From contig CBDCXM010000009.1 of the NCBI GenBank assembly GCA_965223855.1, forward strand, positions 544,001 to 608,000: a DNA stretch of 64,000 bases. Reading direction: 5' to 3'. Origin of the DNA: Candidatus Multivoradales bacterium (GTDB lineage: Bacteria > Acidobacteriota > Thermoanaerobaculia > Multivoradales > JAHEKO01). Below, in pieces: positions 35,670-47,912 of this stretch (positions within the stretch are counted from its first letter, which is position 1; each line of letters opens with the position of its first letter). The notes under the pieces were generated by a model, which searched no databases, was not told where the DNA came from, and was given only the letters and a program-made list of their open reading frames with translations. Made by a program: the position numbers and the translations under genes.

Positions 35670-35924
35670 TCAGTCGACGATGCCGACGACCAGCGAGCGC
35701 ATCGGCGCCGAGTCGTCCTCGAGGATCTGCCGCGCACCGTTGCCCTCGTCGAGGACCAGGACCGTCTCTCCGTGCCCGGCACCGATGGCGTCGAGCGCGA
35801 GCAGGTAGCCGTCGGTCGGTCCGCCTTCTTCGTCGAGTCGCTCGACCACCAGCAGCCGGCGACCGTCGATCACCGGGTGGTGGATCGTCGAGACGACGCT
35901 GCCGACGATGCGCCCGAGAATCAT
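35670..35924 (-). CDS. BMC pentamer (EutN/CcmL)
   Basis: MILGRIVGSVVST, ALDAIGAGHGETVLV, VVGIVD. Confidence 0.95.
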   Translation of the reverse strand: MILGRIVGSVVSTIHHPVIDGRRLLVVERLDEEGGPTDGYLLALDAIGAGHGETVLVLDEGNGARQILEDDSAPMRSLVVGIVD

Positions 35925-36205
35925 CGCGGTGATTCCCCGTCGAGACGGACGTCGTCGACCAGCCCGACGACGGCGTGGTCGACCGGCACGTACCAGGGGT
36001 CGAGGGTCAGCGCCGCCTCACGACTCTCGACCCAGTAGACGAGTTCGCCGGGGCCCGCCATCCGGGTCCCGTCGGCGCAGACGATCGGCTCGCCCGCCGG
36101 CTGCCGGCGGCGATCGAGGGGCTGGACCCACAGGAGCGGCACCCCTTCGAGGCCGTCGGCGACCAGCGCGGGCACCAGGGTTCCGGTCACCCGTCCCAGG
36201 AGCAT
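35921..36205 (-). CDS. BMC pentamer (EutN/CcmL)
   Basis: MLLGRVTGTLV, AGPGELV, SREAA, PVDHAVVGLVD. Confidence 0.92.
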   Translation of the reverse strand: MLLGRVTGTLVPALVADGLEGVPLLWVQPLDRRRQPAGEPIVCADGTRMAGPGELVYWVESREAALTLDPWYVPVDHAVVGLVDDVRLDGESPR

Positions 36206-36828
36206 GCGACCTCCTCGGGGTACTCGGCGCCTGCGGGCTCGACTCCGGGGCCGGGCGCGAAGGCGCTGCCGGTGGCGAGCAGCGCGCGCAGGTTGTCGTC
36301 GAGGCGCGGTAGCAGCGAGCGGCCGAGGACGGCCTCGCCGGCGCGCTCGGCGGCCAGCTCGAGGGCGGTCGTCGCGGTCGTCAGATCGCCCGACAGCAAT
36401 CCGACCGCCTTGCCGCCGAGATCGTCGGCGAGGCGTACCTCGACGATCTCGACGTCCGTGCCCTTGACCGCCGCGTCGAGGCCGCGCAGCAGCGCCGGTG
36501 AGGTGGCGCACTCGAGCACCGCGAGTGCGTCGCCGCCCGGCGTGCGGCGCTCGCCGACCACCGCGTCGTGAAGCTGCGGGTGGACGTCGCCCAGGAAGAC
36601 GCCGTCGAGCTCCCTCGCGGAGTCGGCGACCGCGAAGGCGACCTCGGTCGCCGCCACGCTGCCGCCGACGAGGACCAGGTAGCGGCCGGGGTGGACGGTC
36701 CCGGCGCGCAACAGGGCGATCGGTGCCGCCTTGACCATCCGGTCGGCGGCCGCGAGGCCGGCGGCGATGCTCGCCCACTCGACCAGCGCCAGTGCGGCGT
36801 GGCGACGCTCTCCCGCGGCCTTCGCCAT
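36187..36828 (-). CDS. BMC trimer (PduT-like tandem BMC domain)
   Basis: SIAAGLAAADRMVKAA, PGRYLVLVGG, second domain DAAVKG..LGGK. Confidence 0.9.
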   Translation of the reverse strand: MAKAAGERRHAALALVEWASIAAGLAAADRMVKAAPIALLRAGTVHPGRYLVLVGGSVAATEVAFAVADSARELDGVFLGDVHPQLHDAVVGERRTPGGDALAVLECATSPALLRGLDAAVKGTDVEIVEVRLADDLGGKAVGLLSGDLTTATTALELAAERAGEAVLGRSLLPRLDDNLRALLATGSAFAPGPGVEPAGAEYPEEVACSWDG

Positions 36829-36829
36829 C

Positions 36830-38272
36830 TCAGACGATGCGGAAGTGATCGACCATCACGCAGCGGCGCAGGCGGCTGAAGCTGATCGGCCCGGTCAGGC
36901 CCTCGCCGGTCGGGCTGGCGATGGTGAAGCTGGTGTGGCCCTCGCCTCCCTCGCCGAGACCGGCATAGAACGGACCGTTCTTGGTGAAGATGCTGGTGTT
37001 GATCACCCGGGCCATCTTCGACAGCGCCTCGATGTCGCGCGAGTACATGCCGGACGAATGGCCGAAGCCGTGCTCCGCCTCCTTCGCCAGCTCGATGCCG
37101 CGATCCACGTCGGGGACGGAGGTGACCGGCAGCACCGGCATCATCTGCTCGGTCCACACCAGCGGATGCTCGTTCGGCACGCGCGCCACGGCGAGGCGTG
37201 GGTTGCCGTGACCGGAGATGCCGGCCGCATCGAGAATCACCCCAGCATCCTTGCCGATGAAGTCTTTGTGGACCACCGAGCGGCGACCCGGGCCGCGGTT
37301 CTCGGCAAAGATCGTCCGCTCGACCTTCTCGAGCTCCGCCGGGTCGAGCAGGTAGGCACCGTGGCGCTCCATCTGCGCGACGAGCTCGTCGACGATCGAG
37401 TAGACGGCGATCACTTCCTTTTCGTCGGTGCAGACGATGTTGTTGTCGAACGACGCCCCGGCGACGATCGACCTGCCGGCGTGCTCGAGGTCGGCGGTCT
37501 CATCGACCACCACCGGCGGGTTGCCAGGGCCGGCGCAGATCGCCCGCTTGCCGCTCTTCATCGCCGCGCGCACGACTCCCGTGCCGCCTGTGACCACCAG
37601 CAAACGGATCCCCTTGTGGGTCATCAGCTCCTGCGCCGACTCGATCGTCGGCTGCGCCACGCCGCAGACGACGTTCGGCGGTCCGCCGGCCGCCTGGATC
37701 ACCCGGTGGAGCAGACGGATGTTGTGCTTCGAGCATTCGGCGGCGTTGGGGTGGACGTTGAAGACCACGGTGTTGCCGGCCGAGACCATGGCGATCGTGT
37801 TGCAGATGATCGTCGAGGTCGGATTGGTGGTCGGCGTGATCGCGCCGATGACGCCGTAGGGAGCGTACTCGGTGAGGGTGAGGCCCCGGTCGCCGGTCAC
37901 CGCCTGCGGCGTCAGCGTTTCGACGCCGGCGGTCTTGTTGGTGACCAGCCGGTTCTTGACGATCTTGTCGCTCGTGCGCCCGAGGCCGGTCTCTTCGTGC
38001 GCCATGCGAGCCAGCTCCTCGGCATGCTCGAGCATCGACTCGCGGATCGCCGCGATGATGGTGGTGCGTCGCTCGAGCGACAGCTCATCGAGTCGCCGGA
38101 ACGCCTCCCGGGCCGCAGCGACGGCATCATCGACGGTCGCGAAGATCCCTTCGCCGAGCCCGGCGCCGGTCGACGTCGACGGCACGGATGCCGGTCCGGC
38201 GGAGGCTCCTCCCGCAATCCGCGCCGCCAGCCGGTCGGCGATCCGCTCGACCTGAGCCTCGCTGAGGCTCAC
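36830..38272 (-). CDS. eutE: CoA-acylating aldehyde dehydrogenase (EutE/PduP type) with N-terminal encapsulation peptide
   Basis: ETGLG, PTTNPTST, VTGG, AGPGNPP, SFDNNIVCTDEK, EQMMP; N-terminal helix SEAQVERIADRLAARI. Confidence 0.93.
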   Translation of the reverse strand: MSLSEAQVERIADRLAARIAGGASAGPASVPSTSTGAGLGEGIFATVDDAVAAAREAFRRLDELSLERRTTIIAAIRESMLEHAEELARMAHEETGLGRTSDKIVKNRLVTNKTAGVETLTPQAVTGDRGLTLTEYAPYGVIGAITPTTNPTSTIICNTIAMVSAGNTVVFNVHPNAAECSKHNIRLLHRVIQAAGGPPNVVCGVAQPTIESAQELMTHKGIRLLVVTGGTGVVRAAMKSGKRAICAGPGNPPVVVDETADLEHAGRSIVAGASFDNNIVCTDEKEVIAVYSIVDELVAQMERHGAYLLDPAELEKVERTIFAENRGPGRRSVVHKDFIGKDAGVILDAAGISGHGNPRLAVARVPNEHPLVWTEQMMPVLPVTSVPDVDRGIELAKEAEHGFGHSSGMYSRDIEALSKMARVINTSIFTKNGPFYAGLGEGGEGHTSFTIASPTGEGLTGPISFSRLRRCVMVDHFRIV

Positions 38273-38568
38273 CCGTCAGCCCCCTTGCTGTAGCGCTCCT
38301 TGCCGTCGGTCTCCCAGCTGTCGACGATCGCCATCACCACGGCGTCGACCGGCTTGCCGTCGGTCGCCGCCGTCTGGCGGGCCGACGAACCGCTGGCGAA
38401 GAGCACCATCTCGCCGACCCCGGCACCGACGCCGTCGACCGCCACGACCGATCCACCGGCCGGCTTGTTGTCCGGCCCGTAGAGACCGAGCATCAGGAAG
38501 CGCAGCCCCCTGAGCTTCTCCTCCTTCTGGGTGGCGACGACGGTGCCGAGCACCTTGGCGAGCTTCAC
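38269..38568 (-). CDS. BMC pentamer (EutN/CcmL)
   Basis: KLAKVLGTVVATQK, VAVDGVGAGVGE, SGSSAR, PVDAVVMAIVD. Confidence 0.95.
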   Translation of the reverse strand: MKLAKVLGTVVATQKEEKLRGLRFLMLGLYGPDNKPAGGSVVAVDGVGAGVGEMVLFASGSSARQTAATDGKPVDAVVMAIVDSWETDGKERYSKGADG

Positions 38569-38569
38569 G

Positions 38570-38872
38570 CTACTTCTTGGCCTTGGCGGCCTCGGCGTCA
38601 CGTCCCAGCGGGATCACCAGATCGACGTTGGTGTGCGGCCGAGCGATCACATGCACCGCCACGACGTCACCGACTCGCGCCGCCGCCGTCTGCCCGGCGT
38701 CGCATGCCGCCTTCACCGCCGCCACGTCGCCGCGGATGACCGCGGTCGTGTAGCCGCCGCCGGTCTTCTCGTAGCTCACGAGCTCGACCCGCGCCGCCTT
38801 GACCATGGCATCGGCCGCCTCGACCATCGCCGGGAAGCTCCGGCATTCGACCATTCCCAAAGCTTCGGACAT
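38570..38872 (-). CDS. BMC hexamer (EutM/PduA type)
   Basis: [34 protein letters not shown]. Confidence 0.97.
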
Positions 38873-38929
38873 AGACCTACCTCCTGACCCCCGTGCCGTC
38901 CGGCACGCGGTTGATGACGGGACGGGGCG

Positions 38930-39553
38930 TCACTTCGCCCTCCCGGTGAGACTCTCGATCGCCTGCACGGCCGCGACCTGCGCGACCTCGACGTCTTCTT
39001 CCTCTCCGCCGATGTAGACGCGGCCGAAGCTGCCGACCGCCCGTACCTCGAGGATGTTGATGTTCGCCGCCTTCTCCGCCTCGTTGGCCGCCAGCGCCGC
39101 GTAGGCCGCCGGCTCGCACTCGAGGACGAAGAGCGTCTGCCCTGACAGGATCATGTTGCCGTGGCGCATCCGATTGACGAGCATCGTCTGGGTGTCGGCG
39201 AGATGACGCACCACCTGGTTCGACACCACCCGCGGCTTCATCCGATCCTGCTCGGTCAACCCGAGCGCGTCGAGGATCGCCGCACCCGCCTCCCGGACCT
39301 GGGCCTGAGAGTCGGAGTGGACTTCCAGCATGCCGAAGTGCCGCTCGACGATCTGCATCCCGGGCGTCACGTCGGTCGACTTGAGCGCGACGTCGGTGAT
39401 CCGGTTGACCTCCATCCCGGGTGCGATCTCGATGAAGAGACTCGCCTGCCCAGTGCGGGGCAGATACCCCTTCGAGATCGTCGCCTGGAACGAGGCGAAC
39501 TGCGGCTGCAGAGAATCGAGGATCACGAAGGCCCTCAGATCGACGTCGCTCAT
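38930..39553 (-). CDS. BMC permuted double-stacking trimer (CcmP/CsoS1D type)
   Basis: LRAFVILDSLQPQ, EIAPG, VERHFGMLEVH, NRMRHG, ANEAEKAA, GSFGR. Confidence 0.93.
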   Translation of the reverse strand: MSDVDLRAFVILDSLQPQFASFQATISKGYLPRTGQASLFIEIAPGMEVNRITDVALKSTDVTPGMQIVERHFGMLEVHSDSQAQVREAGAAILDALGLTEQDRMKPRVVSNQVVRHLADTQTMLVNRMRHGNMILSGQTLFVLECEPAAYAALAANEAEKAANINILEVRAVGSFGRVYIGGEEEDVEVAQVAAVQAIESLTGRAK

Positions 39554-39569
39554 CGGTTCCTCATCTCCC

Positions 39570-40910
39570 TCAGGCGCTCACGGTGGCCGCCACCGCCTCC
39601 TGGACGATCGCGATCGAGGCGCTGGCACCGAGCCGGGTCGCCCCCGCCTCGATCATCGCCCGCGCATCGCTGTAGGACTTGATGCCGCCGGACGCCTTGA
39701 CCTCCATGCCGGCCGGCCGCACGACCTCGGCCATCAGGGCGACGTCGGCGACCGTTGCGCCGCCGGTCGAGAAGCCGGTCGACGTCTTGACGAAGTGCGC
39801 TCGCGCCTGGCGCGAGAGCTCCGACGCCCGCCTCTTCTCGTCGTCGGTCAGGAGCGCTGTCTCCAGGATCACCTTGCACACAGCGCTACCGTCGCGGCAC
39901 GCCTCGACCACCGCGCGGATGTCGCGCAGCACCAGATCCTCGAGACCGCTCTTCATGGCGCCGACGTTGAGCACCATGTCGATCTCCTTCGCCCCGGCGC
40001 GGATCGCGCGCCGAGCCTCGAACGCCTTGATCTCCGGCTCGTTGGCGCCGAGGGGGAAGCCGACCACCGTGCAGGTGAGCACCTCGGAGCCACGCAGCAG
40101 TCGAGCGGCCAGCGGTACCCAGGTCGGATTGACGCACACCGACCGGAAGTTGTGCTCCCGCGCCTCGGCACAGAGCTTCTCGACCTGGTCCTGGGTCGCG
40201 TCGGGTTTGAGCAGCGTGTGGTCGATGTAGCGGGCGAGGTCTTCAGGGATCCGCCCCGGCGGCTCGACCTCGGCGACACTGGTGAGCCCGGTTGCTCCCA
40301 GGCGGATCAGGCCACGGGCCGTCTCGGGGCAGTCGCCGACGCACTGCCCGGCAGGCTGCCCGACCGACCCGAGCTTGGCGTGAAGCCGGGCGATCACCCG
40401 CTCGAGGTCGTGCTCCGACAGCGCAGGTTCACCTCCGGCTGCCGCCGGAGCCACCGCGGGCCCCCCGGCGCCGGCGCCGTCGCCGATCATCGCCACCCGC
40501 TTGCGATGGCGCGGCTCGGTGCACTCCGTGGCAAGCCAGACGTCGACGATCTGACGCGCCAGCCCCGGCCCGATCAACGCGGCGCCGAGGGTCAGGACGT
40601 TGGCGTCGTTGTGCTCACGACTGTTGCGCGCGCTCGACACGTCGTAGGCGAGCGCAGCCCGCACGCCCGGCACCTTGTTGGCCGCCATCGAAGAACCGAT
40701 GCCTGCGCCGTCGATCATGATCCCGACGTCGGCACGCCCCTCCGCCACCGCCTCGGCCACCGCGCGGGCGAACACCGGGTAGTCAACCGCGTCGGTGGTC
40801 GAGGTCCCGAGGTCGGTCACCTGGTGCCCGGCCGCCGTCAGATGCCAGGTCAACGCCGCCTTGAGCTCGACTCCACCGTGGTCGGCACCGATGGCGATTC
40901 TCACGACCAC
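39570..40910 (-). CDS. deoC: RpiB-DeoC fusion (sugar-phosphate isomerase + deoxyribose-phosphate aldolase) with internal encapsulation-peptide-like helix
   Basis: GADHGG, DYP, DGAGIGS..ANKVPG, REHNDAN; [40 protein letters not shown]. Confidence 0.93.
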
Positions 40911-41245
40911 ACCTCCGAGTCGTCGCGACGTTCCGAGGCGAGCACCGGCCGGATCACCCCTTCCTCGCTCTCGAGCACCGACTGGAGCGTCCGAACATGA
41001 AATCGCAGCCGCTCGAGCCCGAGCTCGGTCATCCGGAACTCGGTCACCGAACGCCGACCCCGCAGCCCCTTGCGGATGTCGATGTATCCGGCATCGGCCA
41101 GCTTGTTGGTCTGCACATGGAGATTGCCGTCGGCAAGACCGGTCTCGCGCTTGAGCTCGGTGAAGCGCACCGCCTCGCCGGGGGCCAGGGTGGCCAGAAT
41201 GGCGAGCCGCGCAGGGGAGGTGATCATCTCGTCGAACTGTGGCAA
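40901..41245 (-). CDS. Winged-helix transcriptional regulator (HTH_34, MarR/ArsR-like)
   Basis: [31 protein letters not shown]; overlaps start of rpiB-deoC. Confidence 0.88.
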
Positions 41246-41268
41246 CGCAGGGGCTTACGAGCTGTTTT

Positions 41269-41287
41269 TACTTCGTCTCTTGAAGTA
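41269..41287. promoter_or_regulatory. Palindromic operator 1
   Basis: TACTTC-N7-GAAGTA, overlapping the minus-strand -10. Confidence 0.7.
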
Positions 41288-41313
41288 TTGCTCGCTACAG
41301 ACGCAGCAGTCAA
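41284..41313 (-). promoter_or_regulatory. Putative sigma70 promoter of the regulator-BMC operon
   Basis: TTGACT-N18-AATACT on the minus strand. Confidence 0.5.
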
Positions 41314-41339
41314 GCTTTGCGGCCGCCCAATGCTGCCTA

Positions 41340-41358
41340 AACTTCACATTTTGAAGTA
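41340..41358. promoter_or_regulatory. Palindromic operator 2
   Basis: AACTTC-N7-GAAGTA, overlapping plus-strand TAAACT (41338-41343). Confidence 0.65.
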
Positions 41359-41396
41359 ATGCGGCTCCACTGGCGTGGGGGCTTCTCGGATCGACC

Positions 41397-41520
41397 GGCG
41401 TCCGGCCGACCGAGGGATCCTTGCGACAGGGACGTCGCCCCGCTTTCAGGTGTGGCTCGGGACGGCTCGAACGAGGCATCTGATGCCCTGCTGCAAGGTT
41501 CCCTCGGTCGGCCGGACGCC
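41397..41520 (+). repeat. Structured repeat unit 1 (66-nt core 41426-41491)
   Basis: CAGGGACGTCGCCCC-N23-GCTCGAACGAGG-N9-CCCTGC inside a long inverted repeat (21 bp perfect plus extension). Confidence 0.85.
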
Positions 41521-41623
41521 TATGTGGGTGAGACTTCGGGCCGGCTCGCAGTTCGCGGGTGGACTTGTCGAAGCAGGGGCATCGAGCTTTTCGAGCCTTC
41601 TCGCGGTTCGAGCCGGCACTCTC

Positions 41624-41732
41624 GACTCTGCTCAGGCTCCCCCCGCAGGGATGTCGCCCTGCTGTTCAGGGTGAAGCCGGTCTGCTCGAACGAGGGTACT
41701 CATACCCTGCGGCTGGGAGCCTGGGCAGGGTC
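41624..41732 (+). repeat. Structured repeat unit 2 (core 41645-41710)
   Basis: GCAGGGATGTCGCCCT-N23-GCTCGAACGAGG-N9-CCCTGC with a different outer stem. Confidence 0.85.
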
Positions 41733-41838
41733 TCGGTTGCCTACGGTTCGTTGCGGGGATGGAGAAGGGGTTCGACGAGATTAGAGAGAGGGGAGGACCC
41801 CCCTCCCGTCCCAGTGGTGCGCACCGGTACCGTGCGTA

Positions 41839-41965
41839 GGAGCCCCAGCCTTGCGGAGGGTTCCGGCCGCAGGGTGTCGGTGCCCTCGTTCTAGGAGGTC
41901 CGCGCTTCAGATTCCCCTGGGGCGACATCCCTGCGGGGGAACCCTTCGCACGGCGCAGGGGCTCC
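41839..41965 (-). repeat. Structured repeat unit 3 (core 41869-41934, inverted)
   Basis: Reverse complement reads GCAGGGATGTCGCCCC-N23-CCTAGAACGAGG-N9-CCCTGC; own outer stem. Confidence 0.85.
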
Positions 41966-42064
41966 GGGTGTATCCGCGCACACCGTCGCTGAGACCCTCT
42001 GGATCTTCCAAGCCGACTTCACTAGGTCCCTCCACCTCGGAGACCCACCGTCGCCGCCCCGGTA

Positions 42065-42190
42065 GGCGGGCGGCCCGAGCGCAGATCCCGTCAGGCAGGG
42101 CATCAGATGCCTCGTTCGAGCAGAACCGCAGGACACATACCCCTGGGGCGACGTCCCTGCAGACGGGAACTGCGATCGGGCCGGCCCGCC
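42065..42190 (-). repeat. Structured repeat unit 4 (core 42095-42160, inverted)
   Basis: Reverse complement reads GCAGGGACGTCGCCCC-N23-GCTCGAACGAGG-N9-CCCTGC; own outer stem. Confidence 0.85.
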
Positions 42191-42266
42191 GGCAGTCAAA
42201 GAAGGCCGTCAGACTTCCAGTGCGGATTGAGCGGTCGGATCCGAGCCGCCGGCAACCACCAGGGAG

Positions 42267-43211
42267 TCAGGTCTTGCAGGAAACCCCGTACACATGGCAA
42301 GTCCAGCAGGCCGGATGTGCCAGCGGGAAGGGGTTGAGGGTGTCCTTGAGCGTCTCCCCCATCTTGCCGCTCGGCTCGTTGACGAGGATCGGGCAGACCC
42401 ACACTCCCTGGTCGGTGACCATGCGGCAGTTGGAGCACTGGAGGTGGTCCCAGTCACCGTCCGGGGCGTCGCCTTCGCGCAGCACCTGCCAGCTCTCGTA
42501 GGCGGCGGAGCGCTCCGCTTCGGCGCCGATCCGGAACACCGGGAGGATCTTGAGCCGCGGGCGTTCGACGCCGAGCTCGCGCAGCAGCTCGAAGAAGCGC
42601 TCCTTGCCGGCGGCCGAACCGTTGGCGTCGTGGACCTCGGTGACGGTGATCACCGGGTTGATCCCGGCGGCGGCGAGGTTCGAGATCCCCTCGAGGATAC
42701 GGACGAAGGTCCCTTCGCCGCGGATCGGATCGTTGGACTCCGCATCGTAGCCGTCCATCGACACACGGAAGTCGAGCGAGTAGTCGGCTCCGGTGGCGAG
42801 CTCGGCCAGCCGCTCGCAGCGCGCCGGATCGAGCAGCAAACCGTTGGTCAGCACGTTGGCCGGACCGAAGTCCAGGGTGCGCGCGAGGATCGCCTCCATC
42901 TCCGGGTTGAGGAACGGCTCGCCGCCGGTGAAGTAGAACTCCCGCACCCCGAGCTCGGCCGCCTCGAGCAGGTAGGGCTCGATCTCCTCGAGCGTCATCC
43001 CCTCGTGGGTGTGATTGGTCGGCGACGACGAGACGAAGCAGTGGGTGCAGGCGAGGTTGCAGACCGTGCCGGCGACCTGGAACCACAGGGTGTCGAGGGA
43101 GCGCAGGGCGGCGACCGGCACGGCGCCGGGGCGCGGCTGCGGACTCACGGTCGCCGGGGTCGTCCCCTCCTTTTCAGTCACCGCGTTCTCAGCCATGGTG
43201 TTCTCAGCCAT
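42267..43211 (-). CDS. Radical SAM protein (distantly ArsS-like)
   Basis: CNLACTHC, TGGEPF, LTNG, C-terminal CSNCRM..CP..HPACWTC...SC; last gene of the arsM operon. Confidence 0.88.
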   Translation of the reverse strand: MAENTMAENAVTEKEGTTPATVSPQPRPGAVPVAALRSLDTLWFQVAGTVCNLACTHCFVSSSPTNHTHEGMTLEEIEPYLLEAAELGVREFYFTGGEPFLNPEMEAILARTLDFGPANVLTNGLLLDPARCERLAELATGADYSLDFRVSMDGYDAESNDPIRGEGTFVRILEGISNLAAAGINPVITVTEVHDANGSAAGKERFFELLRELGVERPRLKILPVFRIGAEAERSAAYESWQVLREGDAPDGDWDHLQCSNCRMVTDQGVWVCPILVNEPSGKMGETLKDTLNPFPLAHPACWTCHVYGVSCKT

Positions 43212-44010
43212 CGGTGCCTCCCACGTCGAGATAGTCGATCACTTCCGGGGTCTTGGGGTTGTCGAACAGCTCTCCGCAGCAGCCCACCTCGAGCACGCGA
43301 CCGACCCCGTCACGTCGGCAGACGCAGGCGACGTTGTCGGCCAGGCGCCGCGCCTGTGCGAGGTCGTGGGTGACGAGGACCACGGTGTGGTCGCGGGCGA
43401 GGTCGGCGGCGAGACGTTCGATGGCGGCGGTCGCCTTCGGGTCGAGAGCGCTCGTCGGCTCGTCCATCAGGATCACCTCGGGCCTCAGCGCCAGGGCGCG
43501 GGCGAGGCACAGTCGCTGTTGCTGGCCGACCGAGAGTTCGACCGCCGGGCGATCGAGCCGGTCGGCGACCTCGTCCCACAGCGCCGAGCCGTCGAGCGCC
43601 TCGCGCAGCCGCTCCTCGAGGCCGTCGCGGCTCAGCCGCTCGACCTGGCGGACGCCGAAGAGGACGTTGCGGCGGATCGACGCCGGGAAGACCACCGGCT
43701 GCTGGAAGAGCATGCCGATGCGGCTGCGGAGGCGGTCGGCATCGACGGCGGCGCCGTAGATCGGTCGGCCGCGAAACAGCACCTCGCCCGTCACTTCGAG
43801 CGGCGGCGACTCGAGCTCGAGGAGCCGGTTGAACGCCTTGAGGAGCGTGCTCTTGCCGGCGCCCGACGGTCCGATGACGGCGAAGATGCCGCGCTCGGGG
43901 ATCGCGAGATCGACCGCGTCGAGGATCGCCTGCTCACCGCTCGCCACGCGCAGGTTGCGGGCGGTGAGGATCGGCTCCGGGGGTGCCGGCATCGACAGGA
44001 CGTCAGCCAT
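43204..44010 (-). CDS. pstB: PstB-like ABC ATPase
   Basis: GPSGAGKST, IGMLFQQP, LSVGQQQRLCLARAL, MDEPTSALDP, VTH, LF.NP. Confidence 0.88.
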   Translation of the reverse strand: MADVLSMPAPPEPILTARNLRVASGEQAILDAVDLAIPERGIFAVIGPSGAGKSTLLKAFNRLLELESPPLEVTGEVLFRGRPIYGAAVDADRLRSRIGMLFQQPVVFPASIRRNVLFGVRQVERLSRDGLEERLREALDGSALWDEVADRLDRPAVELSVGQQQRLCLARALALRPEVILMDEPTSALDPKATAAIERLAADLARDHTVVLVTHDLAQARRLADNVACVCRRDGVGRVLEVGCCGELFDNPKTPEVIDYLDVGGTDG

Positions 44011-44854
44011 GTCGCGCCTCCTCCGCGGCTCTGAGGCGCAGCGGCAGCGCCGCGAGACTCAGACCCAGCACCAGCGCCAGCAGCACGAAGGCGGCCGCCC
44101 ACAGGTGGCTCGACGCCGCCGGGTCGAACGAGTCCTGGGCGAGCGTGAACACATGGTAGGGCAGCGCCAGGACCGGGCTCTCGACGACCCCGCGGGGGAG
44201 CGTCACGCCCGAGAAGACCGCGGCGGTGAAGAGGATCGGCGCCGTCTCGCCGGCGGCACGGGCGAGCCCCAGGAGCGCCCCCGACGCCCCGCCGGCCCAG
44301 CATTGCGGCAGCACCACGGTCGTAGCGACCTGTGCGCGGCTCAGCCCGAGCGCCGAAGCGGCCGAGAGATAGCGGGTCGGCAACGCCTCGATTCTCTCGA
44401 CGAGGGCGACGGCGATCGTCGGCACGATCATCCAGCCGAGCACGATGCCCCCACCGAGCCACGACTTGCCCCAGCCGAAGAACTTGACGAACACGATCAG
44501 GCCGAGGATTCCGAACAGGATCGACGGCACCGCGTGGACGGCGTAGAGGATCCGCTTCATCGTGCGGCCGGTCCGCGCGCCGACCCACAGCGTCTCGATG
44601 AGCGACCAGCCCAGCGCGAGCGGCGCCGCCACGGCCAGCGCCGTGGTCACCAGGAGCAGCGTGCCGAGAAGCTGGTATCGCACCCCGCCGCTGCCGATCC
44701 GTTCGCCGGCGGCGGCGGTGACGAACTCGCCGCCCAGGCTCGGCAGGCCGCGCACCAGGATCACAGCGACGATGCCGACGAGTAGCGCGCAGGCGGCAAC
44801 CGCGCAGGCGGCGGCTGAGACCTTCAGGCCGCGATCGAGCGCCCTACGCACCAC
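44003..44854 (-). CDS. pstA: PstA-like permease
   Basis: VPSILFGILG, ASALG, ARAAGETAPILFT, LPYH. Confidence 0.88.
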   Translation of the reverse strand: MVRRALDRGLKVSAAACAVAACALLVGIVAVILVRGLPSLGGEFVTAAAGERIGSGGVRYQLLGTLLLVTTALAVAAPLALGWSLIETLWVGARTGRTMKRILYAVHAVPSILFGILGLIVFVKFFGWGKSWLGGGIVLGWMIVPTIAVALVERIEALPTRYLSAASALGLSRAQVATTVVLPQCWAGGASGALLGLARAAGETAPILFTAAVFSGVTLPRGVVESPVLALPYHVFTLAQDSFDPAASSHLWAAAFVLLALVLGLSLAALPLRLRAAEEARHG

Positions 44855-45728
44855 GCATCTCCCGGCGATCCGGCAGCCAACGGCCGGCGATCAGGGTGAG
44901 CGCCATCACCAGCGACAGCAGGACCAGCCCGAGGCCGACGATCGCTCCCCAGTGAAGCGGGTCGCCGTAGGCGAGGAAGGTCTCGGACGAGCCGAGCTTG
45001 CTGGTGAGCGTCTGCCCAGGCTCGAGCCAGGCGCGGAAGCCGAGCAACGCCTGGTTGTCCATCCGCCCGACGACCAGGAAGACGGCGATCGTCTCCCCCA
45101 TCGCGCGGCCGAGGCCGAGCAGCAGCGCGGCACCGAGCCCGGGGGCGGCCTGCGGCAAGGCGACCTTGACGACCGACTCCGCCTTCGTCGCTCCGAGCGC
45201 CCGGGCGGCGCGGCGCTGAGAGCCCGGCACGCCACGCAGCGCGTCGTCGGCGAGCGTCATCACCGTCGGCAGGATCATCACCGCCAGCAGCACGCCGGCG
45301 GTCAGCAGGGTGTCGCCCGAGAGCGGCTCGAACGGTTCGAGCAGGCGGTAGATCCAGTCGCGCAGCAGCAGCACCCCGAGGAGACCGAACACGACCGATG
45401 GGACCCCGGCGAGGAGCTCGATCGGCACCTTGACCCACCAGCGCCTGCGGTCGCTCATGTACTCCGCGGTCCAGATCGCCGCGCCGAGCGCCAGCGGCGC
45501 CGCCAGCACGAGCGCGATCGCCGACACGACGACCGAACCGTAGACCATCGGCAACACCCCGAACTCCTGCGCCCGGTAGTGCCAGGTCTTGCCCGTGAGG
45601 TAGCCGAGCCCCTCGTGCTGCCACACCGGCACGCTCTGGGCGACGAACGAGCCGAGGAGGGTGACGACGAAGGCGAGCGTCAGCGCCGTCGCGACCCAGC
45701 TCGCGGGACGGATCCAGCCGGCGTTCAT
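44844..45728 (-). CDS. pstC: PstC-like permease
   Basis: FGVLPMVYGS, ELLAGVPSVVFG, MILPT, ALGAT, GRAMGETIAV. Confidence 0.9.
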   Translation of the reverse strand: MNAGWIRPASWVATALTLAFVVTLLGSFVAQSVPVWQHEGLGYLTGKTWHYRAQEFGVLPMVYGSVVVSAIALVLAAPLALGAAIWTAEYMSDRRRWWVKVPIELLAGVPSVVFGLLGVLLLRDWIYRLLEPFEPLSGDTLLTAGVLLAVMILPTVMTLADDALRGVPGSQRRAARALGATKAESVVKVALPQAAPGLGAALLLGLGRAMGETIAVFLVVGRMDNQALLGFRAWLEPGQTLTSKLGSSETFLAYGDPLHWGAIVGLGLVLLSLVMALTLIAGRWLPDRREMRGA

Positions 45729-45762
45729 GGCCGGTCGGCGATCCCGTGGAGCGGCACGGACG

Positions 45763-46620
45763 TCATGGAGAACTCGTCGCCTCCGAGGATTGCGGCGGCA
45801 GCGGCAGGAAGCCGTGCCGGCCGACCAGCTCCTGGCCGCGCGCGTCGAGGATGAGATCGATCAGCCGCCGAGCTGCCCCATCGGGCGGACCGTCGGTCAT
45901 CACGTTGAGCGGCCTGGCAAGCGGATAACGGCCGCTGAGCACGTTGTCGCTCGTCGGTCGCACCTCTTCCTCGCCCGGCTCGCACAGCCCGAGGGCGAAG
46001 GTCCTCTCTCCGTCGGCCCAGGCGGCGGAGAGCTGCGTGACGGCGCCGCGGGTGGAGGCGACCTTGGTGCGCGCCTCCTCGTTCGAACCGACCTCCGGCA
46101 GACTCACCAGCGGCGCGGCGTCGCCGTCGCCGTAGAGCCAGTCGGCGAACACCTCCCATGTGCCGCGCCCGGGCTCCTTGTTGAAGAACACCACGCGGCG
46201 ATCGGGGCCGCCGACCTCGGTCCAGCGCGCGGTCTCGCCCTCGTAGAGGGAGCGCACCTGGGCACGTGAGAGACAGCGCACTCCGGCCTGCCAGACATCC
46301 GCCGACACGACCAGCGCAAGTGCATCCGAGCCGAGGGTCGTCACCCGGAAGTCGACGTGCGGGAAACGCTCACGGTCGCCCGCGGTGAGCGGCCGCGACA
46401 CCATCGCCAGGTCGGCGCGCCCGTCGGCCAGCGCCGCGATACCTCCGGAGCTGCCGCCCGCCGTATCGACGTGGATCTCGAGCCCCTCCTCGGCGCGCAG
46501 GATGGCCGCCGCCTCGCTGACCACCGGATTGACGGTCGTCGAGCCGTTGATGCGCAACGCCGCCGAAGCCGGCAGCGCCAGCAGCACGACCGCGACCCAG
46601 GCGACGCCCCTCAGCAACAT
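45763..46620 (-). CDS. pstS: PstS-like periplasmic oxyanion-binding protein with atypical pocket
   Basis: Signal peptide; INGSTTV, GGSSGG, MVSR, DAL, KEPGRGT, YPLARPL. Confidence 0.85.
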   Translation of the reverse strand: MLLRGVAWVAVVLLALPASAALRINGSTTVNPVVSEAAAILRAEEGLEIHVDTAGGSSGGIAALADGRADLAMVSRPLTAGDRERFPHVDFRVTTLGSDALALVVSADVWQAGVRCLSRAQVRSLYEGETARWTEVGGPDRRVVFFNKEPGRGTWEVFADWLYGDGDAAPLVSLPEVGSNEEARTKVASTRGAVTQLSAAWADGERTFALGLCEPGEEEVRPTSDNVLSGRYPLARPLNVMTDGPPDGAARRLIDLILDARGQELVGRHGFLPLPPQSSEATSSP

Positions 46621-47768
46621 CCGTCCGGGCCGCAACAGTCGGCGGCCGCCTCGACGGTGGCGTCGTAGTCCTCGCCCTTGGTCTCGCGCGGATGGCGGAG
46701 CACCGTCCGGGAGCAATCGAACGGCTCGGCACCTTCGAGCGGGATCTCCTCCAGCGGATCGACGAAGTCGAACTGCCCCGTGTAGGGCTCCTGGCGGTAG
46801 AGCTCATAGGTCTTGTCGCACACCGCGTAGCGGTAGCCACGCTGCATCCGATGGCCGTCGTCGTCGAGCACCTCCTTGAAGGGGCCGCGGTAGACCACCG
46901 CCTGCTTGCGCTCCCAGCACGCCCCCTCCTTGCCCTTGAACGCCTCGACGGTAAGCGAGCGGAACTCGATCCCCTCCACCGTCTGCCACGGCTCGACCTG
47001 GCGCTCGAGCACCCGGATGCCGTGAAAGCCGGCGCGCTCGAACGCCTCGAGGAAGCCGCTCTCGGTGAGCGCCCCGGAGATGCAGCCGCTCCACAACTCC
47101 GGATCCTGCTGCAGCTCGAGCGGCACTTCCTCGTCGCTCACGATGTCGGAGATCACCGCCCGGCCGCCGCGGCGCAGCACCCGGTAGATCTCTTCGAACA
47201 TCTGCTCCTTGAGGTCGCTGTCGACGAGGTTGAGGACACAATTCGAAACCACGACGTCGACCGAATCGGAGGCGATCATCGGCTCGCTGGTCCGCAGCCG
47301 GGCCGCGACCTCCTCCAGCTGGATCAGCCGCTCGACGCTGTCGACCGGCTGCTTCGCGAGCTCCGCTTCCAACCGGTCGAGATCGAGCGCCAGATCCTGA
47401 ATCCGGCCACGCCGGAACTCGACGTTCGAGAACCCCGTCTTCTCCGCCACCACCGGCTCGTTGCGGCGCGCGACGTCGAGCATGTCCGGGGTCATGTCGA
47501 CGCCGATCACCCTCCCCTCGGCACCCACCACCTGAGAGGCGATGAAGCAGATCTTGCCGGTGCCGCTGCCGAGATCGAGCACGGTCTCGCCGGGCTTGAG
47601 GTGCTTCGACGGATCGCCGCAGCCGTAGTCGCGCTCGATCACCTCGCTGGGGATCACCTCGAGGTACTGCGGGTCGTAGTCGACCGGGCAGCACAGCTCC
47701 GGCACCTGGGCGCGAGCCCCCTCGCTGTAGCGCTCGCGGACGTTCTTCTCTACATTGGCAACGGACAT
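46611..47768 (-). CDS. arsM: Arsenite methyltransferase-like (ArsM/AS3MT type) SAM methyltransferase
   Basis: RBS AAGGAG; LCCP, DYGCG, VLDLGSGTG, GVDMT, SNCVLNL, WSGCISGA, VCDKT, C-terminal CCGPDGCC. Confidence 0.8.
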   Translation of the reverse strand: MSVANVEKNVRERYSEGARAQVPELCCPVDYDPQYLEVIPSEVIERDYGCGDPSKHLKPGETVLDLGSGTGKICFIASQVVGAEGRVIGVDMTPDMLDVARRNEPVVAEKTGFSNVEFRRGRIQDLALDLDRLEAELAKQPVDSVERLIQLEEVAARLRTSEPMIASDSVDVVVSNCVLNLVDSDLKEQMFEEIYRVLRRGGRAVISDIVSDEEVPLELQQDPELWSGCISGALTESGFLEAFERAGFHGIRVLERQVEPWQTVEGIEFRSLTVEAFKGKEGACWERKQAVVYRGPFKEVLDDDGHRMQRGYRYAVCDKTYELYRQEPYTGQFDFVDPLEEIPLEGAEPFDCSRTVLRHPRETKGEDYDATVEAAADCCGPDGCC

Positions 47769-47912
47769 CGCTCTCTCCTTCTCGGCACCACTCCACTCTG
47801 GCTTCACGCGAGTCGGCCTGCGGCCCGCGGAACGCTGCGGCGACCGCCCTCGCGGTCGACCGCTTTCCCGCCGGTGCGCGAGGAACGCGCTACCGGCTCT
47901 TCGCCCTGGAGG

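Follow-up and report, generated by a model that had tools for sequence, protein, structure and literature searches.

A four-unit hairpin array between two operons of a Candidatus Multivoradales bacterium, a probable cluster of oversized, GTAG-tagged REP/REPIN-like elements

The array described here lies in a window of 64,000 nt (the whole stretch of DNA that was analysed, from the genome designated G000), where it fills a 1-kb spacer between two operons. All the real genes flanking it, as judged by GC3 periodicity, are on the - strand (Table 1). The upstream operon (window 42267-47807, -) comprises a methyltransferase, a PstS-like binding protein, two permeases, an ABC ATPase and a radical SAM protein, the last of which had its best NCBIfam matches far below the cut-offs (103 against 380 bits for the Rv1681 family and 53 against 300 bits for the ArsS-like family). 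The downstream operon (window 35921-41245, -) is a complete microcompartment operon of the sugar-phosphate type, encoding the HTH_34 regulator, an RpiB-DeoC fusion, BMC-domain shell proteins of 207, 100 and 213 aa, two EutN-type vertex proteins and an aldehyde dehydrogenase. Upstream of the regulator are AT-rich palindromes of the ACTTCA-N5-TGAAGT type, whose conservation extends to four related genomes; they recur upstream of orthologous regulators also at loci which carry no array units. These palindromes, which lie nearer to the gene and are distinct from the array units, are likely to be the operators of the regulator. The sole promoter-like site noticed at the array locus is on the - strand, in the interval between unit 1 and the regulator, and neither a promoter-like site on the + strand nor a terminator-like site on either strand was found there. 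No recombinase, integrase, transposase, reverse transcriptase or Cas protein was found among 29 ORF translations from about 26-55 kb of the window, a set which includes some spurious alternative frames.

Table 1. Features of the array locus and their positions in the 64,000-nt window
Feature	Position	Strand	Remarks
Winged-helix (HTH_34) regulator, first gene of the downstream microcompartment operon	40901..41245	-	
Promoter-like site for the regulator gene, between the array (unit 1) and the gene	41284..41313	-	Beside AT-rich palindromes
Unit 1 hairpin, CCGG foot to CCTA foot	41395..41522	+	Core 41427-41491; opposite-strand tag ATAGG
First linker, weaker hairpin overlapping the 5' foot of unit 2	41536..41621	.	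z -2.8 on +, -2.4 on -
Unit 2 hairpin	41613..41743	+	Core 41646-41710; opposite-strand tag GTAGG
Central spacer between inward-facing tags (tail-to-tail junction of units 2 and 3)	41744..41834	.	No significant fold
Unit 3 hairpin, inverted	41835..41967	-	Core 41869-41933; GTAGG tag is the left end, + strand
Third linker	41968..42062	.	No significant fold
Unit 4 hairpin, inverted	42063..42192	-	Core 42095-42159; GTAGG tag is the left end, + strand
Radical SAM gene, last gene of the upstream operon	42267..43211	-	Stop codon 75 nt from unit 4

The core pattern was matched exactly four times in the 64-kb window, twice on each strand, while no match was expected by chance and none of 100 shuffled sequences gave any. 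The start-to-start intervals of the cores (219, 224 and 226 nt) and the order of two units on the + strand followed by two inverted ones were as given in the preliminary description of this DNA. Since the core match is 65 nt long in all four units, both internal gaps are equal in length between the units, in line with the fixed N23 and N9 segments which had been claimed. Each unit is a hairpin of 128-133 nt that starts with CCGG and ends with CCTA, and on the opposite strand this end reads as the tag GTAGG in three units and ATAGG in one, the GTA or ATA being unpaired and the GG paired. The arms, from CCGG to the core, measure 32-34 nt and differ in sequence between copies while keeping their complementarity; the outer stems had been described as divergent and complementary, which they are, but their length had been put at 20-30 bp, which is too short. 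The hairpin, the foot motif and the three core boxes, which are identical across the four units, have been preserved while the arm sequences of the array diverged to near saturation. The linkers and spacers between the units are 90-95 nt long and have no other copy elsewhere in their own genome, and the first linker is possibly a decayed unit.

Every core of the four units sits within a long inverted repeat. Folded as RNA the units gave z-scores of -5.6 to -8.9 and as single-stranded DNA of -4.9 to -8.7, with none of 200 shuffles reaching the stability of the native folds. We aligned the four units in the core-forward orientation and derived a consensus structure with RNAalifold, which consists of one main helix of 36 pairs and two small apical helices. 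On this structure 88.6% of the alignment cells were paired, as against 36-48% when the partners were slid by 1-3 columns, and 18 of the 44 consensus pairs had changed on both sides; none of 500 shuffles reached the observed values of the pairing and covariation measures. It had been argued beforehand that a want of covariation would speak against selection on structure, and the covariation found is strong. The hairpin array is thus a real and statistically robust feature.

In the consensus fold the N9 segment pairs with AYGTCG of the first box, and this helix holds one covarying pair, C-G in two units and U-A in the other two. The preliminary description had N9 and its flanks always forming a small hairpin; such a hairpin does exist as a competing fold, good in three of the four units. 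The helices of the apical domain have four pairs each and mixed counts, and their support is weak. The hairpin noticed earlier in the first linker is present but modest (z -2.8) and partly uses the foot of unit 2, and the other two linkers showed no significant structure in the fold test. As to the G-T mismatches noted earlier in outer stems on the + strand, 16 such pairs were counted on that strand and 9 on the other. Over 15 elements of the wider family described below, G-U pairs on the core-forward strand were in excess (66 vs 35), and folding energy favoured the forward strand in just 9 of the 15.

We also compared the contigs of three sequencing runs at this locus. One of these spans the whole stretch without any difference and may be its source, and the contigs of the two other runs end inside or beside hairpins. 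No credible inversion or excision joint between units was present in the contigs of the three runs; one listed joint, from 40770 to 42576, was disregarded because of its 22-nt side and foreign depth. Compared with the window, a contig of 393 nt from run X3 (depth 4.5) shows 15 differing positions and three insertions; the 14 of these differences that are listed all fall within 41550-41613, in the first linker, and unit 2 is identical. This contig may represent a strain variant or an assembly error.

Scattered in the intergenic DNA of G000 are about 17 longer hairpins (145-190 nt) which are related to the array units and have in common with them the foot motif, the constant arm length and part of the core. 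A genome-wide scan for hairpins with CCGG...CCTA feet gave 14 matches, about 9-10 of which are hairpins of 164-187 nt outside the array; the others were unit 1, two matches shorter than 60 nt which are likely due to chance, the 175-nt match at C9:409330, which is poorly paired and was also taken as chance, and a second register at one locus. The larger of the relatives fall into two subfamilies. The first has 13 elements in G000 with a core motif of the GGGGGACG-TCGCGCG type, from which a three-way apical domain of about 110 nt starts, and 7 of these 13 carry the complete CCGG...CCTA foot (counted by eye); the second has three members (C9:177757, 178009 and 1533466). Among the elements of the array and of the first subfamily, all nine whose limits were set correctly have 32-35 nt between CCGG and the core, in spite of unrelated arm sequences. 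We considered whether the arms could be captured 'spacers' and ruled this out, as further matches to the 5' arms of 14 elements did not exceed 17 nt anywhere in the genome. A pair of family members with 81% identity show eight differences in the arm, each of them mirrored in the other arm, and their core changes lie in loops. Taken as a family, these elements have two feet, one with an unpaired tag of the GTAGG type and the other with CC|GG; two arms of about 33 nt, free in sequence and obliged to be complementary; and a conserved apical domain capping the stem, 64 nt long in the array and about 110 nt in the larger relatives.

When aligned with MAFFT, the first box of the array units fell on the GGGGGACGTCGC motif of the larger family and the N9/CCCTG end of the units on the inner 3' stem of the copies from the congener G002, and about 50 nt of the larger core were absent from the units. 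This alignment suggests that the 64-nt core of the array is an internally deleted derivative of the larger core. All elements checked are intergenic, most of them between convergent genes or less than 100 nt from a stop codon, and both orientations are represented; of the eight members that have an upstream stop codon no more than 100 nt away, six are in the sense orientation (counted by eye).

The comparison of orthologous sites showed that the family behaves as non-autonomous DNA, mobile or prone to insertion and deletion, which is present at some of these sites and absent from others. Two copies in G002 (L133 and L137) stand where G000 has empty spacers of 67 and 88 nt, the G000 copy at C9:390558 stands where G002 has a spacer of 73 nt, and a fourth site is occupied in G002 by a GTAGG-family hairpin and in G000 by a MITE-like element of the TAGCCYGRACTTCTCACGCC type (see below). 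No target-site duplication or excision product was seen in these alignments, in which the empty sites are too diverged to fix the boundaries. At the array locus itself, the spacer between the radical SAM and regulator genes holds four units in G000, while the syntenic spacer of G002 is 641 nt long with two decayed hairpins and that of G003 is 267 nt long with no units. The two hairpins of G002 have the same feet as the array and are ordered forward then reverse, and one of them is a truncated copy of the family found in G002. In two other congeners the contigs (G001:C147 and G004:C317, loci L092 and L093) end 296 and 62 nt upstream of the orthologous regulator, that is, at a position equivalent to the array, which suggests that repeats difficult to assemble are present there too.

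A covariance model (R1) built from the four units, when run as had been proposed on the array's own genome, recovered the four units alone (150 of 5622 first-look candidates scored), and it found none in 60 relatives, with 54 candidates scored per genome, a depth at which weak copies could be missed. Relaxed matching of the single boxes in the own genome (2 and 1 substitutions) gave 197 and 472 sites, and the two boxes combined returned only the four array units. In the GTDB species-representative set the array core gave 81 pattern matches with varied spacing, and none of the 80 loci scored with R1 was supported; the best scores (E 0.51 and 0.85), one of them off the pattern site, were taken as chance. 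In the JGI metagenome contigs a single sequence matched three times, unsupported by the model at that position; a plasmid collection gave one 43-nt chance match to the array and a phage collection none. The motif of the larger core was present in two of 61 genomes, namely G000 and G002, the latter one of four congeners, and absent from the other 59 (G005 is among the relatives in these tallies); a sample of 400 genomes of the phylum gave single matches in six genomes, as compared to three control matches. G002 has seven copies of the larger core, and since their inner arms are alike, their sequences suggest a recent burst. Rfam 15 produced no match in the window at the gathering thresholds, and at E<=10 the array region had just sub-threshold matches to hairpins resembling miRNA precursors; nine loci of relatives gave no match above threshold and the family elements none. 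The earlier remark that no known Rfam motif is recognisable here thus stands for the window, the region and the loci of the relatives, and the array is assigned to no Rfam family.

The preliminary description had also proposed to look for a RAYT, TnpA or recombinase gene accompanying the repeats, and we found no matching transposase or recombinase. PF01797 had 16 matches in G000, and a protein search for the Y1-like family had 26. A RAYT-like gene is present at C9:452705-453364 (NF047646, 68.6 bits as against a cut-off of 80 bits). On either side of it are short repeats of the GGTGACAGGATAC type in inverted arrangement, which recur elsewhere in the genome as paired hairpins, in the layout of a classical REPtron. 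The gene was rejected as the cognate enzyme, being flanked by short REPs of its own and not by the array-type repeat, and no RAYT flanked by array-type repeats was found in G000, an assembly that is 92% complete. The genome further encodes multi-copy HUH/Y1-like proteins of about 300 aa (e.g. C9:525706-526617, C9:92884-93795 and C9:3053057-3053968), whose genes have inverted repeats of the GGTTCCGGGTGAATAGTC type and tandem repeats of 155 nt at their flanks; this family resembles the 'TIRYT' genes in the outline of them given by Di Nocera et al. (PMC3733652). We rejected it as a partner, as its flanking repeats are different and its counts in the congeners do not track the hairpins; it is present in 47 of 61 relatives, throughout the order, and therefore does not follow their distribution.

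The largest REP superfamily is recognised by an unpaired GTAG at one end, and according to PMC3733652 these GTAG REPs are extragenic, lie downstream of ORFs and between unidirectional or convergent genes, occur as singletons, as tail-to-tail or head-to-tail dimers and as clusters (BIMEs), form species-specific families and keep the changes in their stems complementary. The array family agrees with that account in its tag (GTAGG in three units, ATAGG in one), its extragenic habit, with about 17 dispersed relatives (a low copy number for a REP family), its clustering, its restriction to few genomes of one lineage as in species-specific families, and its complementary stem changes; in the terms of the same source, units 1-2 and 3-4 are arranged head-to-tail and the two middle ones, 2 and 3, make up a tail-to-tail dimer. 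REPs are given there as 20-40 bp long with stems mostly of 6-9 bp and tens to hundreds of copies, unlike the elements of the array family, which measure 128-190 nt (128-133 nt with 36 main-helix pairs in the array and 145-187 nt in the relatives), pair over about 45 bp, bear a conserved and structured apex, number about 20 and were not found at the flanks of any RAYT gene. On account of this disparity in size, copy number and RAYT linkage we do not call the array family a member of any described family. For REPINs, PMC3116915 reports that length and pairing capacity are constrained in the variable part, with compensatory changes common, that a hairpin of about 100 nt is the likely replicative unit, and that the elements occur in ordered clusters and in lineage-restricted populations. 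The array family shares with these REPINs the long hairpin with pairing-preserving change, the ordered clusters and the lineage restriction, but the two ends of REPINs in that account are conserved inverted REPs, their middle is variable and they are tied to a single-copy RAYT, a link not found for the array family, whereas here the apex and a 4-nt foot are conserved, not 16-mer ends, and the arms vary.

Other systems resemble the array less. The family is, like MITEs, small, non-coding, palindromic, intergenic and insertion-polymorphic, and its members are likely internal-deletion derivatives of longer relatives. MITEs have terminal inverted repeats that are conserved between copies and are flanked by target duplications; the arms of the array family differ between copies in G000 and no duplication is visible in the flanks, though the copies in G002 do share arms. 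A true MITE-like family with conserved termini coexists in G000: it consists of hairpins of 180-190 nt with termini of the TAGCCYGRACTTCTCACGCC type, with about 20-25 copies among those listed (e.g. C8:163712-163902, C8:332732-332914, C9:1316702-1316884 and C9:2078172-2078370). The array is not CRISPR-like, as had been recognised from the start: two of its units lie in inverse orientation, and what varies are arms complementary to each other.

Taking these results together, the best reading is that the array consists of four copies of a short, locus-specific subfamily of lineage-restricted long palindromic repeats. We consider it reasonably probable that these are non-autonomous palindromic elements of an oversized, GTAG-tagged, REP/REPIN-like kind, clustered in the manner of a BIME and evolving with their structure preserved, and the array is best filed as an oversized variant of the REP/REPIN/BIME kind and not as an RNA gene or a recombination array. 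Of the readings offered earlier, a structured RNA array on the one hand and a REP/REPIN-like or recombination-site family on the other, the REP-like one is favoured because of the GTAG-type foot tag, the dispersed family of about 20 intergenic hairpins, the restriction to two congeneric genomes and the polymorphism of the sites. It had been held that hundreds of copies of a described REP family would reduce the array to an ordinary repeat, and what we observed are few copies and no described family. The reading has to accommodate that no cognate enzyme was identified, that elements of 128-190 nt in about 20 copies are far from classical REPs of 20-40 bp, and that neither a target-site duplication nor an excision product was seen.

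From the tag, the clusters, the location habits and the pairing-preserving change, all as in GTAG REPs and REPINs, we infer a non-autonomous element that would act as a folded single strand, by analogy with the REPs and REPINs handled by HUH/Y1 enzymes. The folded strand may be single-stranded DNA during replication or transposition, or RNA when the element is read through; the apical boxes would serve as the recognition module for a putative protein and the foot as the place of processing. Probably the four units are the product of local duplications of a single internally deleted copy that this spacer already held in the common ancestor with the congener. If the array affects its host locally, for instance by blocking read-through from the upstream operon into the regulator and the microcompartment operon, this would be a by-product or an exaptation.

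Purely selfish spread does not easily account for everything seen in the array. Its units are confined to this one locus and their arms are near saturation while three boxes remain identical, which looks like purifying selection in place, and the G-U excess on the core-forward strand (which would fit RNA too) also argues against selfish spread alone. It is conceivable, although we regard it as rather doubtful, that the elements form an undescribed folded-strand class, with a conserved apex, a sequence-free stem of about 33 bp, a GTAGG/CCGG foot and a handler not yet linked to REPs, and that the array is kept by purifying selection for a host role at the operon boundary, as RNA or as single-stranded DNA.

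The main rival, the proposal that the four units are putative functional structured RNAs, either a processed ncRNA array or cis-acting 3'/5'-UTR modules, is disfavoured and in our judgement unlikely. Units 3 and 4 would then come from - strand read-through of the upstream operon and units 1 and 2 from a divergent + strand promoter beside the regulator gene, and the conserved boxes would form a protein- or ligand-binding apical domain. Strong covariation and a fixed core geometry are what such RNAs would show, but the helices of that apical domain are weakly supported and no usable Rfam match was obtained even at E<=10. The inner helix has G-U at two conserved positions in three of the four units on the core-forward strand, which along with the forward G-U excess in the family speaks for RNA, and so does the invariance of the three boxes in spite of saturated arms and with no other copy as a source; against this, the core is absent from all other genomes and metagenomes searched, the spacers of congeners hold decayed units or none, and the parent family is insertion-polymorphic. 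By virtue of the forward-forward-reverse-reverse layout a transcript from either side would read its first two units forward, and the sense orientation prevails among family members near an upstream stop codon; yet both orientations occur within this one spacer and across the family, and neither a promoter-like site on the + strand nor any terminator-like site was found.

That the units are folded-strand recombination sites, attC-like or other, used by a site-specific recombinase for cassette capture or for inversion between units of opposite orientation, is highly improbable. Integron attC sites are recognised by their fold and not by their sequence, and have variable arms and conserved ends. 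The conserved fold, the free arm sequence and the inverted pairs of the array recall these sites, and the contigs of two runs break at its hairpins; but the 29 ORF translations include no integrase, recombinase, transposase or reverse transcriptase, the 90-95-nt spacers hold no cassettes, the foot motif is different and does not appear to fit attC core sites, the array has a conserved apex which attC sites are not known to have, and the contigs contain no credible joint between units. Just as improbable is that the units are double-stranded DNA binding sites with boxes bound by a protein and the palindromy incidental, for which the three invariant boxes with fixed spacing and the place of the array upstream of a regulator gene could be cited, as compensatory change over arms of about 33 bp has no role in duplex binding, the likely operators of the regulator are the other, AT-rich palindromes, conserved at loci without units, and relatives of the units sit at the 3' ends of unrelated genes.

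Most work on repeats of the REP, REPIN and MITE kind has dealt with Proteobacteria, in which they are short palindromes linked to RAYT transposases. The oversized REP/REPIN-like family proposed here retains the GTAG-type tag and the intergenic location and differs in being four to five times larger than a classical REP and in its inverted conservation, with the apex kept and the arms free and no cognate enzyme in sight. If the apex is indeed a recognition module, the family would offer a compact system for studying the way in which folded-strand elements are recognised and measured, and would also illustrate how selfish hairpins come to be permanently lodged between operons. For annotation, it may be borne in mind that hairpin arrays can be mistaken for RNA genes and that they break short-read assemblies. 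The inverted-repeat scan of G000 also brought up, at C9:2808258-2809484, a repeat of about 243 nt in at least five copies arranged in tandem, every one of which starts with AAGGAGGAGTTCGAACTC.
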